DNA from: Acidobacteriota bacterium
GTDB lineage: Bacteria > Acidobacteriota > Vicinamibacteria > Fen-336
DNA: 64,000 bases
Assembly: GCA_022340545.1 (NCBI GenBank)
Contig: JAJDNV010000159.1
Coordinates: 21,872 to 85,871 of the forward strand
Reading direction: 5' to 3'
Part shown: piece by piece, positions 3 through 49,601 of the stretch
How the letters are laid out: each line of letters starts with the position of its first letter
Position numbering within the stretch: position 1 is the stretch's first letter
Made by a program: the position numbers and the translations under genes
Notes under the pieces: generated by a model
What the model was told of the DNA's origin: nothing
The model's input: only the letters and a program-made list of their open reading frames with translations
Database searches by the model: none

Positions 3-716
3 GAGTCTCACGTCGAGCGCACGGCCGGGGACGACGAGGTCCTGCGTGAGGCCGCGGAGCTGGTGGCTCGAGCCGCCCCGTTTCGCGCCGACGCGGAGGC
101 CTCGGCCGAGCACCGGCGTCAGCTCGCGCGGGTGCTGGCCCTGCGGGCCCTCCGAGGCGCAGTGGACCGAGGGCGGCGACGCCAGCCGCCCGACATCCCC
201 CGTCTTCGCCCGCCGGCATCGCACCGGGGAGCCGCCCCCCTCGCCAACTTCACCTCTGGACGCCTCGACGTGACGGCGAACGGGCGCAAGCTCCGCGTGG
301 ACGCGGAGGCCCGCACGTCCCTGCTCGACCTGCTCCGGGGGGCGGGGATCTTCGGCGCCAAGGCGGGGTGCGGGGCGGGGCGCTGCGGGGCCTGCACCGT
401 TCTCCTCGACGGCCGTGCGGTGGCCTCCTGTCTGACCCTGGCGGTGCGCGCCCAGGGACGCACCGTCCTCACCGTCGAGGGCCTGGGCACGAGCGCGCGG
501 CCGCACGTTCTGCAGACCGTGTTCGCGGAGGAGGGGGCCATCGGGTGCGGGTTCTGCACGCCCGCTCTCCTTCTCGGAGCGAAGTCCCTCCTCGACGCCG
601 TGCCCAACCCGACCGAGGACGAGGTGCGCGAGGCGCTCACCGGGCTCTGCCGCTGCACCGGGTACGTGAAGCCCGTCCGGGCCGTCCTCGCCGCCGCCTC
701 ACGGAGGGAGCGGTGA
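3..716 (+). CDS. XDH/CODH-family protein, 5' partial: C-terminal segment of a FAD-binding (CoxM-like) subunit continuing in-frame into a (2Fe-2S)-binding CoxS-like small subunit
   Basis: In frame 3 the CoxM-like C-terminal motif ASAEHRRQLARVLALRAL is followed, with no stop codon, by the 2Fe-2S motifs CGAGRCGACTV, GCGFCTPA and CRCTGY. A GTG at 270 could be an independent small-subunit start. Stop at 714-716. Confidence 0.6.
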   Translation, partial: ESHVERTAGDDEVLREAAELVARAAPFRADAEASAEHRRQLARVLALRALRGAVDRGRRRQPPDIPRLRPPASHRGAAPLANFTSGRLDVTANGRKLRVDAEARTSLLDLLRGAGIFGAKAGCGAGRCGACTVLLDGRAVASCLTLAVRAQGRTVLTVEGLGTSARPHVLQTVFAEEGAIGCGFCTPALLLGAKSLLDAVPNPTEDEVREALTGLCRCTGYVKPVRAVLAAASRRER

Positions 717-2833
717 CGCTCCGGAGAGCCACCGGGGAGGTGGCCTTCGCCGGGGACTTCATGCGTCCGGGCGCCCTCCACCTGGCGATCCGGCGCTCGC
801 CGGTGGCCCACGGACGCGTCGTCGCGTCCGACACCACGGATGCGCGGGCCCTCCCCGGGGTGGTGGCAGCCCTGGCCGCGGAGGACACGGCGGGAGTCCT
901 CGATCCCGTGCTTCGCTTCGTCGGGGACCGCGCGGGGGTCGTGGCCGCAGAGGACGCCGACATCGCCCGGCACGCCGCGGACATGGTTCACCTCGTCGTG
1001 AAGCCGCTCCCGATCGTCCTCGATGCCGAGGCCGCACGGAAAGATCCGGAACAGGTCGCCGCCCGTTTCGATGTCGAGGTCGGCAACGTTGATGAGGCAC
1101 TCGCGATTGCGGATCACGTCGTCGAAGGGACGTGGACGGTCCCGGCCGCCCCGACGGTGACCCTGGATCCGCCCGTCACCCTGACCTGGCTCGACGACGA
1201 CCGTCGTCTGGTCGTCCGGACCTCGGCGGAGTCACCGTTCCGCGTGCGCCGGCTCCTGGCCGATCGCCTCGGCCTCCCCGCCGCCCGCATTCGCGTGATG
1301 CGGCCACTCGTGGCCGGAGGCGTGGGGGGCCGGCCCGACGTGCCGATCGAGGACCTCTGCGCCCTCGTCACGTTGCGGACGGGGCGTCCGGCACGCCTGG
1401 CGCTGACCGCCGAGGAGCTGCCGCTCTTCCCCGGCCGCCCCCCGCAGAGAATCGAGGTCCGACTGGCCGTGCAGGCCGGCCGCCTGAGCGCCCTCGCGCT
1501 GCGGCTGCTCGTGGACGTGGGCGCAGACTCGGAGGGGGCCGAGGCCCTGCTGAGATCCGCGGCCCGCCAGGCCCTCGCGCTCTACAGTGCCCCGAGCCTG
1601 CGCGTGGAGGCCGTCGCGGTGCGCACTCACCGGCCACCGACCAGCCGACGGCACGGGGCCGACGATGACGCCGCGTTCGCGGTCGAGTGCGCGATCGAGG
1701 AGGCCGCGCGGCAACTCGGAGAGGATCCAGTGAAGTTTCGTCGCCGGCAGCTGCGTCGACCCGGTCGGGGGTACGAGCTGCCCGGCGGGCTGGGCGAAGC
1801 CCCCGGAGCAGACGATGCGATGCCTCTCGACGCGTTGCTGGAGGCCGGAGTGCAGAAGGCCCGCTGGGGCCGACGGGATCGGGGGCGGGGAGCGCTCAGC
1901 CCGGTCCGGTGGGGGCTCGGGGTGGGGCTGGCCCGCCGCGCCGCCGGCGCAGCCGAGGGCACGGGAGCCGCGGCCACCCTCCGCCTCCTGGAAGACGGCT
2001 CGTTCACGCTCGCCGCGGCCCCGTCGTCCACGGGGGCAGCGGACGAAACGGTGTTCGCGTCGGCGGCGGCCAGCATGCTCGGCGTCCCGGCGCGGCGGGT
2101 GGTCCTCGCCGCCGCCGACACCGACTCTGCCCCGTTCGAAGCGGGTGACCACGCGCCCACCTTCCTCTCGACGGGCCGCGCGGTGGAGCAGGCGGCCGAG
2201 GTGGCACGGGAGCTGATCCGCAAGGCAGGCGCCGCCATGCTCGGCACGGACCCGGCCCGGGCCGAGGTGGTCGGCGGTGAGGTGCGTGCGGAGGATGGCC
2301 GTACCGCGAGCTTCGCGGCGATCGGAGCGGCAGCACTCGAGGCCGGCCAGCCCGTCGCCGCCACCGCGGTCCCCTCCATTGAGAACGCACCCCCGTCCGA
2401 TGCCGCCGTCTTCGCCGAGGTGGAGGTGGACACCGAGACCGGTGTGGTGCGCCCGCTTCGTCTCACCGCGGTCGCGGCCGGCGGTCCCTTCGCCGACCCG
2501 CGTCCCGCCGAGGCGCAGGTCGAGGGCGCGCTCGCCACCGCCCTCGAGCGTGCGCTCGCCGCAGCCCTTCCGGTGGATACCGAGGGCCGGCCGCTCGCCG
2601 GGTCCCTGCGCCGCTGGCCCCTCGTGGCCGCCGGTGACGTCCCGCCGATCGCGGTGACCTTCCTCCCGACGGACGACCCCTCGACACGCTTCGGGGCCAT
2701 GGCCGTGGGTGAGACGGCGGGTCGGGCAGCGGTGGCCGCGATCGCGGCGGCGGTTGCCCACGCATCGGGTGGAACGGTGAGGTCGCTGCCGCTCGACCCG
2801 GGGACGGTGCTGGACCTCCAGGCCGGCCGCTGA
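712..2833 (+). CDS. XDH/CODH/aldehyde-oxidase-family molybdopterin-binding large subunit (CoxL-like)
   Basis: GTG start overlaps the upstream stop (GTGA) and follows GGAGGGA. N-terminal Ald_Xan_dh-like region (GEVAFAGDF...AHGRVV..DTTDARALPGVVA) and AGGVGGRPD, a variant of the GGGFGGK motif. About 707 aa. Confidence 0.75.
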
Positions 2834-31347: not shown

Positions 31348-33306
31348 ATGGAGACGACGCTTCAGCAGATCGGCGATCTCGCCTGGCGGGCCTTCCAGTC
31401 GGTGAACACCCGCGTCCCCGAGGGACGCTCGGTCGAGCCGGACTGGGCGCCGGGACCCCTGCCGAAATCGCACGAGAGGACGCGTCCGCCCCTCGGCTAT
31501 CCTCGCGAGACGGACTCGCTGTGCCCCCAGTGCGTCATCGAGACGCGGAGGAAGCTCCTGAACGGGGAGCGCGATCTCAAGGACCTCGTCGACGGCCACA
31601 TCGGCGAGGTCAAGGCCACGTTCTACGAGAAGGGCAAGGAGCTCTGGGTCACCAAGACCTGCCCCGAGCACGGGACCTTCGACGACATCCGCTCCATCGA
31701 CGTCGAGTTCGACAAGGTCGTGGAGAGCCGCTTCCCCGGGCGCGACTACCGCACCTTCGGGGACGAGAACGTGCACCGCCACGGCACCTCGACCGTGCGG
31801 TACGGCCGCGGCGCGGTCCTGACCGTCGACCTCACCAACCGCTGCAACATGATGTGCAACCCCTGCTTCATGGACGCCAACCAGGTGGGGTACGTGCACG
31901 AGCTGACGCTCGAGGAGATCAAGAAGATCCTCGACGACTCGATCTCCTTCAAGCCGCGGCGGCAGATGGTGGTGCAGTACTCCGGCGGAGAGCCGACGAT
32001 GTCGCCCCACTTCCTCGAGGCCTGCGCCTACGCGAAGAAGGTGGGCTACAAGCTCATCCAGGCCGCGACCAACGGCATCCGCTTCGCCCTCGAGCCCGAG
32101 TTCGCCTTCCAGGCGAAGGAGGCGGGGCTCGACATGGTGTACTTCCAGTTCGACGGGACCACCAACGAGGCCAACTCCCACCGTCACATCACCAACCTCT
32201 TCGACGTCAAGAAGATCGCCATCGACAACATCGCCGCCGCCGGGATCCGCATCACCCCGGTGGTGACCGTCGTCAACGGCGTGAACAACCACATGGTCGG
32301 TCCGATCTTCGACTTCTGCCTCGAGAACCACGACAAGATGGGCGGGCCCGCGTTCCAGCCGGTGTCCTTCACCGGACGTGACGAGGAGATCAGCGACGAG
32401 GAGCGATTGAAGCAGCGGTACACCACCTCGCACCTCGCCCACGACCTGGCGAAGTACTACGACGGCAAGATCGACCCCTACCGGGACTGGTACCCGCTGG
32501 GTTCCTCGACCGCCTTCGCCTCCCTCGCCGACCACCTGAGGGGACCGCAGTCGGACTTCGGACAGCTCAACTGCGGCTGCCACCCGAACTGCGGGGCGGC
32601 GACGATGATGGTGGCCAACGCCGGCACCGGCGAGTGGGCGACGCTGATGTCGTTCTTCAACCTCGACCAGTTCTTCAGGGACCTCGACGTGGTCGTCGAC
32701 TCCGCTCGCGGCAAGACCGCCACCATCGCCCAGATCGGCCTCTCCTTCCTCCGCAACTTCGACCAGAAGAAGGCCCCGAAGGGGATGACCCCGCTCCGGA
32801 TGCTGGAGCTGTTCAACGGGAAGATGGGCGGGACGGTGACCGGCGACGGCGAGGAGAAGAAGGGCGAGTGGCGCCTGACCACGATCCTGAGCATGTGGTT
32901 CCAGGACCTGTGGAACTACGACTTCCGCCGCACGGAGATGTGCGTGATCCCGTACGGCACCCAGGAGGGCGAGATCTCCTTCTGCGCCTACAACACCGGC
33001 GTGGGGTGGCGGAACATCATCGAGGAGATGCGCCAGGTGGCCACGACGAAGGACTGGTTCGCCGAGAAGGGCCGGCACCAGATCTACGCCGGCGACCGGC
33101 CCGTGGAGATGCCCCACGCCCTCAAGCGCAAGCTGCCGGTCGTTTCTGTCGAGGGAGGAAACGGGAACGGAGACGGCCACGAGCAGGCCCGGCCGGTGGG
33201 CGGCAACGGGAACGGCCAGGGTCACGCGAGGGCGGCCGACGGCGCCCCCCAGCCCGCCGGGCCGCACGCCCAGGGCGGCTGCGGCACCGGCTGCGGGGGC
33301 CACTAG
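31348..33306 (+). CDS. radical SAM enzyme with N-terminal rubredoxin-like Cys pairs and additional Cys clusters; possible MJ0619/Tes (GDGT-MAS)-family member; Gly/Asn-rich C-terminal tail
   Basis: CNMMCNPCF (CX3CX2C) followed by GGEPT. N-terminal CPQC...(45 aa)...CPEHG. Extra clusters CGCHPNCG and C..C. Tail GNGNGDGH...GNGNGQGH...GGCGTGCGGH. RBS GAGAGGAGG. Confidence 0.8.
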   Translation: METTLQQIGDLAWRAFQSVNTRVPEGRSVEPDWAPGPLPKSHERTRPPLGYPRETDSLCPQCVIETRRKLLNGERDLKDLVDGHIGEVKATFYEKGKELWVTKTCPEHGTFDDIRSIDVEFDKVVESRFPGRDYRTFGDENVHRHGTSTVRYGRGAVLTVDLTNRCNMMCNPCFMDANQVGYVHELTLEEIKKILDDSISFKPRRQMVVQYSGGEPTMSPHFLEACAYAKKVGYKLIQAATNGIRFALEPEFAFQAKEAGLDMVYFQFDGTTNEANSHRHITNLFDVKKIAIDNIAAAGIRITPVVTVVNGVNNHMVGPIFDFCLENHDKMGGPAFQPVSFTGRDEEISDEERLKQRYTTSHLAHDLAKYYDGKIDPYRDWYPLGSSTAFASLADHLRGPQSDFGQLNCGCHPNCGAATMMVANAGTGEWATLMSFFNLDQFFRDLDVVVDSARGKTATIAQIGLSFLRNFDQKKAPKGMTPLRMLELFNGKMGGTVTGDGEEKKGEWRLTTILSMWFQDLWNYDFRRTEMCVIPYGTQEGEISFCAYNTGVGWRNIIEEMRQVATTKDWFAEKGRHQIYAGDRPVEMPHALKRKLPVVSVEGGNGNGDGHEQARPVGGNGNGQGHARAADGAPQPAGPHAQGGCGTGCGGH

Positions 33307-36411: not shown

Positions 36412-37014
36412 CTAGTCGTCTTGCTTCTCGAAGTCGAGGCTCGCGGAGTTGATGCAGTAGCGCAGGCCGGTCGGTCTGGGCCCGTCGTCGAAGACGTGTC
36501 CGAGGTGCCCGCCGCAGCGCCGGCAGAGAACCTCGATCCGACGCATGCCGAGGGTGCTGTCGTCCTTCGTTTCGACGTTCTCCCTGGCCACAGGGGCATA
36601 GAAGCTGGGCCAGCCGGTGCCGGACTCGAACTTCGTCTCCGAGGTGAAGAGGTCGGCGCCACAGGCGGCGCACTTGTAGACGCCCTTCTCGTGGTTGTCC
36701 CAGTAGCGCCCGGTGAAGGCCCTCTCAGTCCCCTTCTCCCGCAGCACCCTGTACTGCTGGGGTGAAAGGGTCTCCTTCCAATCCTGCTGGCTCTTGACCA
36801 CCTTGTCGGACACGACGAACCCCCCCTCCTCGACCGAGAACAGGCGCACGGTCCCCTGGCCTTCGCCCGCCGACACTTCCTCACCGGGAGCCGCGGCCTG
36901 GACAATTCCTGCGGACAGCAGTCGCTCGGGATCTCCCGGGCCCGGACGGAACGCCAAGAGCCACACCAGGGCGGTGATCGCGACGGCGGTGGCGTAGATC
37001 AAGGTCTTTCTCAT
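36412..37014 (-). CDS. msrB: peptide methionine (R)-S-oxide reductase MsrB with N-terminal membrane anchor/signal
   Basis: SelR motifs CAACGADLF...[16 protein letters not shown]...RYCINS. Start at the ATG at 37014 (MRKTLIY). Confidence 0.85.
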
Positions 37015-37210
37015 GGACTCTCCCGGGGCGGAGACCCGCACATCCCCCTACCATGGTGCAACGCCGGGAGGCCACTCGCCATTCCCGGCGGGACGACGAC
37101 CCGTGGGGGCGTAGGTGGTGTATGCTGCGGCATCGTTCCAGGTCAGACGTCCGGCGGCCCCCGCGGAGCAGGGGTTTTTCCTCGCCTGCGGGGCCGGGGA
37201 GGCGACGAAG

Positions 37211-48998: not shown

Positions 48999-49129
48999 GC
49001 AGAGCCTAGTCCCGATCCGACGGGGGGTGCAAGCCGGCCCCCAAGAGCGGGGGTTCAGTCGGTCAGCTCGAAGAGCAGCAGAAGCGTTCGGGTAGTGTCG
49101 GGACCGGACCGGCCCCGGACCTACACGCC

Positions 49130-49351
49130 TCAGGTGCCCCCGTACCCGAGCTTGACGCGGCCCTCGTCAACGATGACCGGCACGCTGCGTCGGCCTCCCG
49201 AGTGCCCGAGCATCTCGTCGAGCGCCGCCGGCGACGCAGTGACGTCCCGATAGTCAACCGTGTAGCCCTTACCCGCGTAGGCCTCCCGGGCCTCGGTGGT
49301 GTGGGGTCACGTGTTCTTGCCAAAGATGAGGACGGTGCGCGAGTCTGCCAT
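49130..49351 (-). CDS. glutaredoxin/NrdH-like small redoxin with an in-frame TGA at the active-site Cys position (candidate selenoprotein, alternatively a pseudogene)
   Basis: Absent from the ORF track. Translation MADSRTVLIFGKNT[TGA]PHTTEAREAYAGKGYTVDYRDVTASPAALDEMLGHSGGRRSVPVIVDEGRVKLGYGGT has the glutaredoxin-fold layout, with TGA (49307-49309) exactly where the CxxC cysteine sits. TATAAT immediately upstream of the ATG. Short GC hairpin downstream of the TGA. Confidence 0.45.
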
Positions 49352-49379
49352 GGCTTCATTATAGGGGCCCCGGTGTACC

Positions 49380-49601
49380 ATGGGCCCCATGCGGAACTTC
49401 GGGGCGATCATGCTGCTTGCAGGCATCCTGGGCTTCTTCTACGCCTCGCAGCAGCTCGAGAAGTACGAGCCGGTGCCCGCGGGCGTGAGCATCAGCGAGG
49501 GACTGAACCGCCCGGCCGGTCGGTGGGACCTGGCGCGCTACGCCTGCGCGGGGGTCGCGGGGATCGGGTTCCTCATGGCGCTCTTCCCCAAGGGACGCTG
49601 A
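49380..49601 (+). CDS. small two-TM membrane protein, hypothetical
   Basis: 73 aa with two hydrophobic helices. 15 nt upstream of the LOG gene. Confidence 0.35.
   Translation: MGPMRNFGAIMLLAGILGFFYASQQLEKYEPVPAGVSISEGLNRPAGRWDLARYACAGVAGIGFLMALFPKGR

Follow-up and report, generated by a model that had tools for sequence, protein, structure and literature searches.

A UXX-star family 1 glutaredoxin-like gene with two in-frame UGA codons, both very probably read as selenocysteine, in an Acidobacteriota bacterium

Introduction

The closest described relatives of the gene treated here are the UXX-star selenoproteins. A 2026 review lists the NCBIfam family NF041114 with the motif UxxT and two selenocysteine (Sec) residues (PMC13188914). 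The same review equates this family with the 'distant Grx-like protein 1' of the older literature, credited there to Zhang & Gladyshev 2008, credits the remaining UXX-star families to Haft & Tolstoy 2025, and cites Kim et al. 2011 for the selenoprotein glutaredoxin of Clostridium oremlandii (PMC13188914).

The locus examined in the present study lies in a stretch of 64,000 nucleotides from an Acidobacteriota bacterium, with a G+C content of ~70% (hereafter the window), in which a first-pass annotation had flagged a minus-strand open reading frame (ORF) as a candidate selenoprotein with a single Sec. Our analysis indicates that this ORF is very probably a real, conserved, small glutaredoxin-like gene with two selenocysteines rather than one, which supports the selenoprotein reading and replaces its one-Sec form, the TGA at codon 74 being a second Sec codon. 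The gene belongs to a family that is already curated (NF041114) and published, and is not a new kind.

Results and discussion

Gene layout and family assignment

On re-reading of the minus strand, all of the earlier statements about the sequence of the ORF hold, including the in-frame TGA at the first active-site Cys position, in the motif U-P-H-T. The ATG (49351-49349) opens 14 codons, MADSRTVLIFGKNT, followed by the first TGA and then by 58 sense codons, PHTTEAREAYAGKGYTVDYRDVTASPAALDEMLGHSGGRRSVPVIVDEGRVKLGYGGT, which end in ...KLGYGGT and lead directly into a second in-frame TGA. The ORF had originally been ended at this second TGA; the 58 codons up to it were counted correctly, but the gene continues through GGC GTG TAG, giving a coding sequence of 76 residues with two TGA codons, U15 and U74 (Table 1). 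The second TGA was ruled out as the gene end, as exactly two sense codons and a TAG lie beyond it in a pattern that is kept across the family.

Table 1 Coordinates of the features assigned at the locus (window numbering, all on the minus strand)
Feature	Coordinates	Strand	Evidence
Putative -10 promoter hexamer TATAAT	49358..49363	-	Sequence and between-locus comparison
Complete CDS of the UXX-star family 1 glutaredoxin-like selenoprotein, 76 residues plus TAG (MADSRTVLIFGKNT-U-PHTT...LGYGGT-U-GV-stop)	49121..49351	-	Translation, NF041114.2, PF00462, orthologues
Probable first Sec codon, UGA, residue 15, at the nucleophilic Cys position of the glutaredoxin active site, motif U-P-H-T	49307..49309	-	TGA/TGY at the aligned codon
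Probable second Sec codon, UGA, residue 74, three codons before the true stop, the 'U' of UXX-star	49130..49132	-	TGA in 82/82 readable loci
Codons 75-76 (GGC Gly, GTG Val) and true stop TAG	49121..49129	-	Codon usage, 74 unique loci
SECIS-like element 1, within the CDS; core hairpin 49293-49279 (AGGCC/CGGGA/GGCCU) plus lower helices	49266..49305	-	Folding and comparison
SECIS-like element 2, almost all in the 3'UTR; upper stem 49117-49110/49106-49099 (8 bp), apical loop GUC 49109-49107	49081..49131	-	Folding, bSECIS model, comparison

With U written as C, the 76-aa product scored 110.1 bits with NF041114.2 ('UXX-star selenoprotein family 1'; cut-off 72) over profile positions 1-70 of 70, and 81.2 bits with the parent model NF041212 (cut-off 66). 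The NF041114 score was still 93.8 bits when codon 15 was written as X and the last three residues (U-G-V) were removed, and the Pfam Glutaredoxin model PF00462 gave 37.5 bits. The redoxin match is far beyond chance and spans the TGA in one frame, in keeping with the glutaredoxin layout originally proposed across the internal TGA. The accompanying description of that layout as a CxxC-type redoxin has to be abandoned, the family motif being U/C-P-Y/H-T instead.

Like the members of UXX-star family 1, the product is ~76 aa long and has U-x-x-T in the active site of a glutaredoxin and a further U three residues from the end of the chain; its profile match is full length and exceeds the curated cut-off, and the host is Vicinamibacteria-like. 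It differs in nothing of substance; the motif U-P-H-T has His for the usual Tyr, and within the data set this His was found only in the window and in one further locus from the same organism (L005, which matches the window at 99.8% identity across 2.7 kb). UXX-star families 2 and 3 and the HUGP/GUXX-star fusion selenoprotein (NF041211, NF047338 and NF045501) share the glutaredoxin-like domain and the C-terminal U-x-x-stop, as seen in partial matches, but these scored far under the respective cut-offs (36.5 vs 100, 50.2 vs 97 and 43.3 vs 325 bits), and the product is without a HUGP domain. Three other redoxin classes were considered and rejected: the classical dithiol glutaredoxin (Grx3, TIGR02181; 34.4 bits vs a cut-off of 90), from which the product also departs in having Thr as the fourth motif residue and no helix after beta-4; NrdH (TIGR02194; 17.3 bits vs 85.75); and YruB (TIGR02196; 31.1 bits vs 88.55).

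A profile search of a 5.8-billion-protein database returned 3,752 protein clusters; UXX-star family 1 is abundant in Acidobacteriota-like bacteria of soil and sediment. Close relatives found in this way carry the NCBI label 'UXX-star (seleno)protein family 1 [Vicinamibacterales bacterium]'. A single-sequence protein search yielded only two matches, because the database homologues are truncated or miscalled, and the profile search was needed to find the family.

Codon 15 and coding constraint

A total of 84 related loci were compared, of which two came from species-representative genomes (one Vicinamibacteria MAG and one MAG labelled Hyphomicrobium), two from exact protein look-ups and 80 from metagenomes. 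The aligned codon 15 is TGA in 49 of the 84 loci and Cys (TGY) in the other 35, which confirms the correspondence between the TGA and an active-site Cys on which the first-pass annotation had relied. Such a Cys/Sec pair was observed for U15 only. All of the best 120 of the 3,752 database clusters carry the Cys form of the motif, CPYT.

The earlier annotation had named a recently inactivated gene as the alternative, and a glutaredoxin pseudogene would agree with the presence of an in-frame stop within a short ORF that gene callers have passed over. The comparative data already refute it: 49 loci, with protein identities as low as 57%, retain this TGA; promoter, start codon and reading frame are conserved as well; and the sequence beyond TGA-15 remains under coding constraint, with a dN/dS over codons 16-73 of 0.15-0.37 (window versus twelve orthologues). 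This constraint excludes a pseudogene, a reading to which we attach practically no probability.

The C-terminal tail

At codon 74, TGA was found without exception in the 82 readable loci. Sec and Cys replace each other freely at position 15, whereas a Cys-74 form was absent from the 84 loci and from the best 120 database matches. Across the 74 unique loci, codon 75 was GGC in 36, GGG in 24, GGA in nine, GGT in one, CAT in two, and AGC and AGG in one each, codon 76 was GTC in 45, GTG in 22, GTT in four and GTA in three, and a stop followed codon 76 in every case (TGA in 37, TAG in 32, TAA in five). Gly-Val therefore follows TGA-74 in ~95% of the loci with synonymous variation, and the U-x-x-star layout of a second TGA, exactly two sense codons and a stop, read in the window as TGA GGC GTG TAG (49132-49121), occurs in 74 of 74. 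As judged from codon usage, third-position variation in GGN GTN together with a fixed stop is the signature of translated codons and not of an untranslated region.

These observations bear on a simpler model, in which TGA-15 alone is a Sec codon, TGA-74 is a real stop, and the hairpin downstream is a terminator or an mRNA-stabilising element. Gene callers do end all database homologues at ...GGT, directly before TGA-74 (seen in all of the best 120 of the 3,752 clusters), and a strong GC-rich stem-loop lies right past the ORF so defined. Two codons and a stop beyond TGA-74 in all 74 unique loci, varying in their third positions only, would have no place in such a model, and the curated profile covers the tail, the score rising from 93.8 to 110.1 bits once the tail and C15 are included. 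Furthermore, no U-tract follows the hairpin, a terminator scan of this strand found nothing, and the loop shows the G(G/U) signature of a SECIS at SECIS distance. We consider the one-Sec model highly improbable and retain two Sec codons.

Where the true stop is itself TGA (37 of the 74 unique loci, among them L010, L012-L016, L018 and L020), it lies 6 nt past the Sec-TGA, with the same hairpin downstream of both. A Sec-UGA and a stop-UGA only 6 nt apart would represent a natural test of how distance determines whether Sec is inserted or the chain is ended.

SECIS-like elements

The apical loop GUC of the downstream hairpin (element 2) is spaced 20 nt from UGA-74. The 63-nt region has a minimum free energy (MFE) of -29.4 kcal/mol (z = -2.9), a value reached by 1 of 200 shuffles, and the upper hairpin alone contributes -13.3 kcal/mol. 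According to the review, the bSECIS model of Zhang & Gladyshev calls for 4-16 bp in the upper stem, 3-9 nt in the loop with a G in its first two positions, 16-37 nt of spacing and an MFE of at most -7.5 kcal/mol (PMC13188914). Element 2 in the window has all of these properties, as do 69 of 73 family sequences compared with 20% of shuffles. Stricter criteria, namely a perfect hairpin of 5-11 bp with a pairing score of at least 16, a loop with GG or GU, and a loop start 19-27 nt from the U of the UGA, again recovered 69 of the 73 unique sequences versus 4.0% of dinucleotide shuffles and 3.5% of random windows from the same loci. The stems vary freely, with 32 different inner arms and each stem position seen as G-C, C-G, A-U and U-A. 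Shuffles and random windows served as the controls in place of a covariance model, which was dropped because the hairpins had been selected by pairing and pair counts would be circular. Searches with Rfam, which is without a useful model for bacterial SECIS elements, matched nothing at the locus or elsewhere in the window. Based on folding and comparison, we regard element 2 as established in silico as a predicted recoding signal.

The hairpin within the coding sequence (element 1) presents its loop, CGGGA, 18 nt past UGA-15, with a G at loop position 2 and an upper stem of 5 bp. The whole structure folds at -19.8 kcal/mol (z = -0.39), no better than shuffles; at 70% GC, single-sequence folding energy does not separate element 1 from shuffles. 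On a strict reading of the bSECIS model the 5-bp upper hairpin alone misses the -7.5 kcal/mol threshold. The support for element 1 comes from comparison between loci. Across 40 unique TGA forms, pairing is kept in all 160 cells of the four core pairs, a conservation partly confounded with that of the peptide A-R-E-A. The fourth core pair (24-36) is GC in 32, CG in seven and GU in one, with seven double changes and none broken, such that a Glu-to-Asp change (GAG>GAC) is always accompanied by a synonymous GCC>GCG. In a codon-for-codon alignment of 31 Cys forms, the same four pairs were formed in about one third of cells, and all 13 pairs of the element in 41%, no better than slid controls. The small hairpin that had been singled out at the start as a possible part of a SECIS is thus the invariant core of a structure specific to the TGA forms, with one compensatory pair, and element 1 is a probable recoding signal.

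Promoter and translation start

A leaderless mRNA had been suggested at the outset from a TATAAT ending 7 nt before the ATG. The position is correct on re-reading: six nucleotides (GAAGCC) separate the hexamer from the ATG, the A of which is the seventh base. Thirty of 43 unique upstream regions of TGA forms contain a perfect TATAAT 5-9 nt before the start and eight more a 5/6 match, and in most Cys forms a TAnnnT hexamer occurs 6 nt upstream, its place being taken by a Shine-Dalgarno sequence in a few members of low GC content. No Shine-Dalgarno sequence is present between the TATAAT and the ATG in the window. A sigma-70 consensus scan reported neither a promoter nor a -35 partner, and it is the comparison between loci that supports the -10 box. 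The same comparison fixes the start at 49351, together with the fact that the further ATG upstream, inside TATAATG, is out of frame in the window.

A TATAAT conserved in a background of ~70% G+C is strong evidence for a -10 box that would set a leaderless transcript. Its conservation at a fixed distance without a Shine-Dalgarno sequence favours the original suggestion, and the mRNA is probably leaderless.

Genomic context

The gene is flanked on one side by genes for ferrochelatase, RsgA, SerC, a Fis-type HTH protein and an uncharacterised 200-aa protein, and on the other by those for a divergent 73-aa membrane protein, a LOG-family protein, an SPFH protein and a MepA/LysM peptidase. Gene-neighbourhood clustering of 85 loci identified no neighbour conserved across the family that would point to a substrate. 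The only recurrent neighbours were clade-specific: 21 TGA-form loci share an amidohydrolase-like gene, and 18 Cys-form loci a thioesterase-like gene. The 73-aa predicted membrane protein (49380-49601, plus strand) has no family match, and its start lies 28 nt from the ATG of the selenoprotein gene, a pairing kept in ~10 close loci. With divergent starts 28 nt apart, the two promoters must overlap.

Six contigs of the same organism that carry the SPFH gene (L085-L090; JGI 33000317xx/33000366xx, ENA ERZ272514xx) have the selenoprotein gene uncalled in 6 of 6, the public gene calls stopping at the 70/73-aa membrane protein. Most databases cut the Cys-15 relatives short at TGA-74. The organism is also present in metagenomes Ga0316577-Ga0316584. 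With the gene recognised, the gene map can be put right and the organism counted as a probable user of selenium. The orthologue and its flanks in a MAG labelled 'uncultured Hyphomicrobium sp.' (L001, CAXMOH010000206.1) are almost identical to those of the Vicinamibacteria MAG (L002, contig CAUZDW010000006.1), and the Hyphomicrobium-labelled contig may have been mis-binned.

Several other genes of the window are worth recording. A methionine-R-sulfoxide reductase, MsrB, with an N-terminal extension of ~80 residues is encoded 12 kb from the selenoprotein gene (36412-37041, minus strand); MsrB is a classical client of thioredoxin/glutaredoxin-type reductants. A 652-aa radical-SAM protein (31348-33306, plus strand) scored 292 bits with the tetraether lipid synthase Tes model NF045702, under the cut-off of 450, and 199 bits with the radical SAM (seleno)protein TrsS model; it may be a membrane-spanning-lipid enzyme in an Acidobacteriota-like genome. 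A large subunit of a molybdopterin oxidoreductase of the xanthine dehydrogenase (XDH) family (368-2833, plus strand) scored far under the cut-offs of the selenium-dependent XDH models (TIGR03311, 150 bits; TIGR03313, 202 bits), and this weak similarity is not evidence for the use of a selenium-dependent molybdenum hydroxylase. The stops of 46 GC3-selected ORFs in the window were TGA in 22, TAG in 21 and TAA in three; the TAG share looks high for a genome of ~70% G+C, and some ORF ends may have been miscalled.

Decoding and proposed function

In the standard bacterial pathway, SelB, Sec-tRNA(Sec) and a SECIS act at a fixed distance from the UGA. For the locus described here, transcription from the TATAAT box would give a leaderless mRNA starting at or beside the AUG. 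UGA-15 would then be recoded with the help of the small in-frame hairpin and UGA-74 with that of the strong GC-rich hairpin, the latter sitting in the 3'UTR because Gly-Val-TAG alone come after UGA-74. The role of each hairpin would be to bring SelB, loaded with Sec-tRNA(Sec), to the ribosome. The capacity of the organism to decode Sec is assumed from family membership. The 64-kb window itself contains no selA, selB, selD or tRNA-Sec, as determined from 46 ORFs compared with SelA, SelB and SelD and from a tRNA scan; no tRNA gene of any kind was detected in the window or in the 84 loci, and a scan of the window for other genes with an in-frame TGA found none.

The lack of Sec machinery in the window would also be expected if the UGA codons were read through by a standard residue (Trp, Cys or Gly) with a near-cognate or suppressor tRNA in an organism without a Sec pathway, and one metagenome pipeline has produced an orthologue, P0001, in which TGA is translated as Trp. 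TGA is, however, the ordinary stop of well-defined genes in the window (those for SerC, the ferrochelatase HemH, SbcC, SbcD and the SPFH protein), and the code is therefore the standard one and not one in which TGA is a sense codon. In addition, SECIS-type hairpins occur at the right distance after both UGAs, and only if the codon is TGA, and position 15 switches with Cys, never with Trp or Gly. We consider read-through by a standard residue very unlikely. No report of experimental Sec incorporation in UXX-star family 1 was found in the literature covered.

Sec15 would be placed at the N-terminus of helix 1, in the U-P-H-T motif and without a resolving Cys, and Sec74 on a flexible Gly-rich tail (GYGGT-U-GV) that takes the place of the last helix of ordinary glutaredoxins. 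Because the U-P-H-T motif is without a resolving Cys, Sec74 would be the obvious partner of residue 15: Sec15 may act as the attacking nucleophile and the tail Sec74 swing in as the resolving residue, forming an intramolecular Sec15-Sec74 diselenide, or a selenenylsulfide in the Cys15 relatives.

The main functional rival accepts the same gene and the same two Sec residues, and takes the selenolates as a ligand pair for a metal or metalloid (e.g. Hg, As, Cu or Se) and not as a redox couple. Metal binding is mentioned for this family in the review (PMC13188914), and the product is without both a resolving Cys and the glutathione-binding C-terminal helix; the metal transporters Nramp and ZupT are encoded elsewhere in the window, though not adjacent to the gene. 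On the other side, no metal-resistance or transport gene is a conserved neighbour in the 85 loci, and the product shares its fold, the position of its active site and the cis-Pro 'VP' motif with redox-active glutaredoxins. A ligand pair is in our judgement unlikely, and we favour the redox couple. Taking the evidence as a whole, it is highly likely that the locus is a functional UXX-star family 1 gene whose two UGA codons are read as Sec on a leaderless transcript, with Sec15 and Sec74 as a presumed redox pair.

Two further readings are put forward jointly and tentatively, as possible but far from secure: that the C-terminal Sec74, bonding with residue 15, is obligate, and that the family supplies a natural, widespread example of a bacterial SECIS acting from the 3'UTR of a leaderless mRNA. 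Were Sec74 obligate, the family would amount to a 76-residue, self-contained 'redoxin plus TrxR-like tail' with a chemistry beyond replacement by Cys, and a two-Sec redoxin in which one Sec is apparently irreplaceable would be a good test case for the advantage of Sec over Cys. The 3'UTR reading, if true, would extend to the genes with a terminating UGA 6 nt after the Sec-UGA, in which UXX-star family 1 would show how SelB tells the two codons apart. Parts of this proposal may already be covered by Haft & Tolstoy 2025 (mSystems), reportedly the likely primary description of the UXX-star families.

Protein fold and comparison with known redox systems

An AlphaFold model was obtained for the orthologue P0001 (76% identical, with Trp at both TGA codons) using 43 family sequences. 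The model has a pLDDT of 84.5 and a low-confidence tail, and its elements follow the order b-a-b-a-b-b (b1 6-11, a1 16-27, b2 31-36, a2 41-51, b3 59-62 and b4 65-68). Foldseek grouped the model with small glutaredoxins, namely A. fulgidus Grx-1, C. oremlandii cGrx1, BC3987, E. coli Grx3 and NrdH, at TM 0.72-0.78 (also given as 0.74-0.78). A glutaredoxin fold combined with U/C-x-x-T is indicated by the PF00462 match, by U-P-H-T at residues 15-18 and by the P0001 model, from which the product is predicted to be a 76-residue minimal thioredoxin/glutaredoxin fold (beta-alpha-beta-alpha-beta-beta).

The closest solved sequence is E. coli Grx3 (3GRX/1FOV; E = 5e-7), with which the product has in common the T-C-P-Y active site and the cis-Pro 'VP'. 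Grx3 has CPYC, a GG-x-DD segment (also given as GG-Y-DD) and a C-terminal glutathione-binding helix, whereas the product has Thr for the second Cys and a chain that ends in GGT-U-GV without that helix. The selenoprotein glutaredoxin of Clostridium oremlandii, solved as Cys versions (7C10/7C12 and 4TR0/4TR1), likewise carries Sec in the first position of the active site of a small glutaredoxin fold (TM ~0.75), but has a dithiol-type U-x-x-C motif and a single Sec, and is without a C-terminal Sec tail.

By analogy, the proposed Sec15-Sec74 tail chemistry would resemble that of the C-terminal Gly-Cys-Sec-Gly (GCUG) tail of mammalian thioredoxin reductase (TrxR), in which a Sec is likewise found no more than three residues from the C-terminus, in a flexible stretch rich in Gly. 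A bacterial SECIS can act from the 3'UTR if the Sec is near the C-terminus, as with engineered TrxR in E. coli; Arner et al. 1999 reportedly expressed the enzyme there with an engineered SECIS after the stop codon. That arrangement, with a bacterial-type SECIS in the 3'UTR directly past the stop, is the one seen here for element 2. TrxR differs in being a large flavoenzyme with an adjacent Cys as the partner of its Sec, whereas the product described here is a 76-aa redoxin in which the presumed partner is Sec/Cys15 and the putative 3'UTR SECIS is a natural one.
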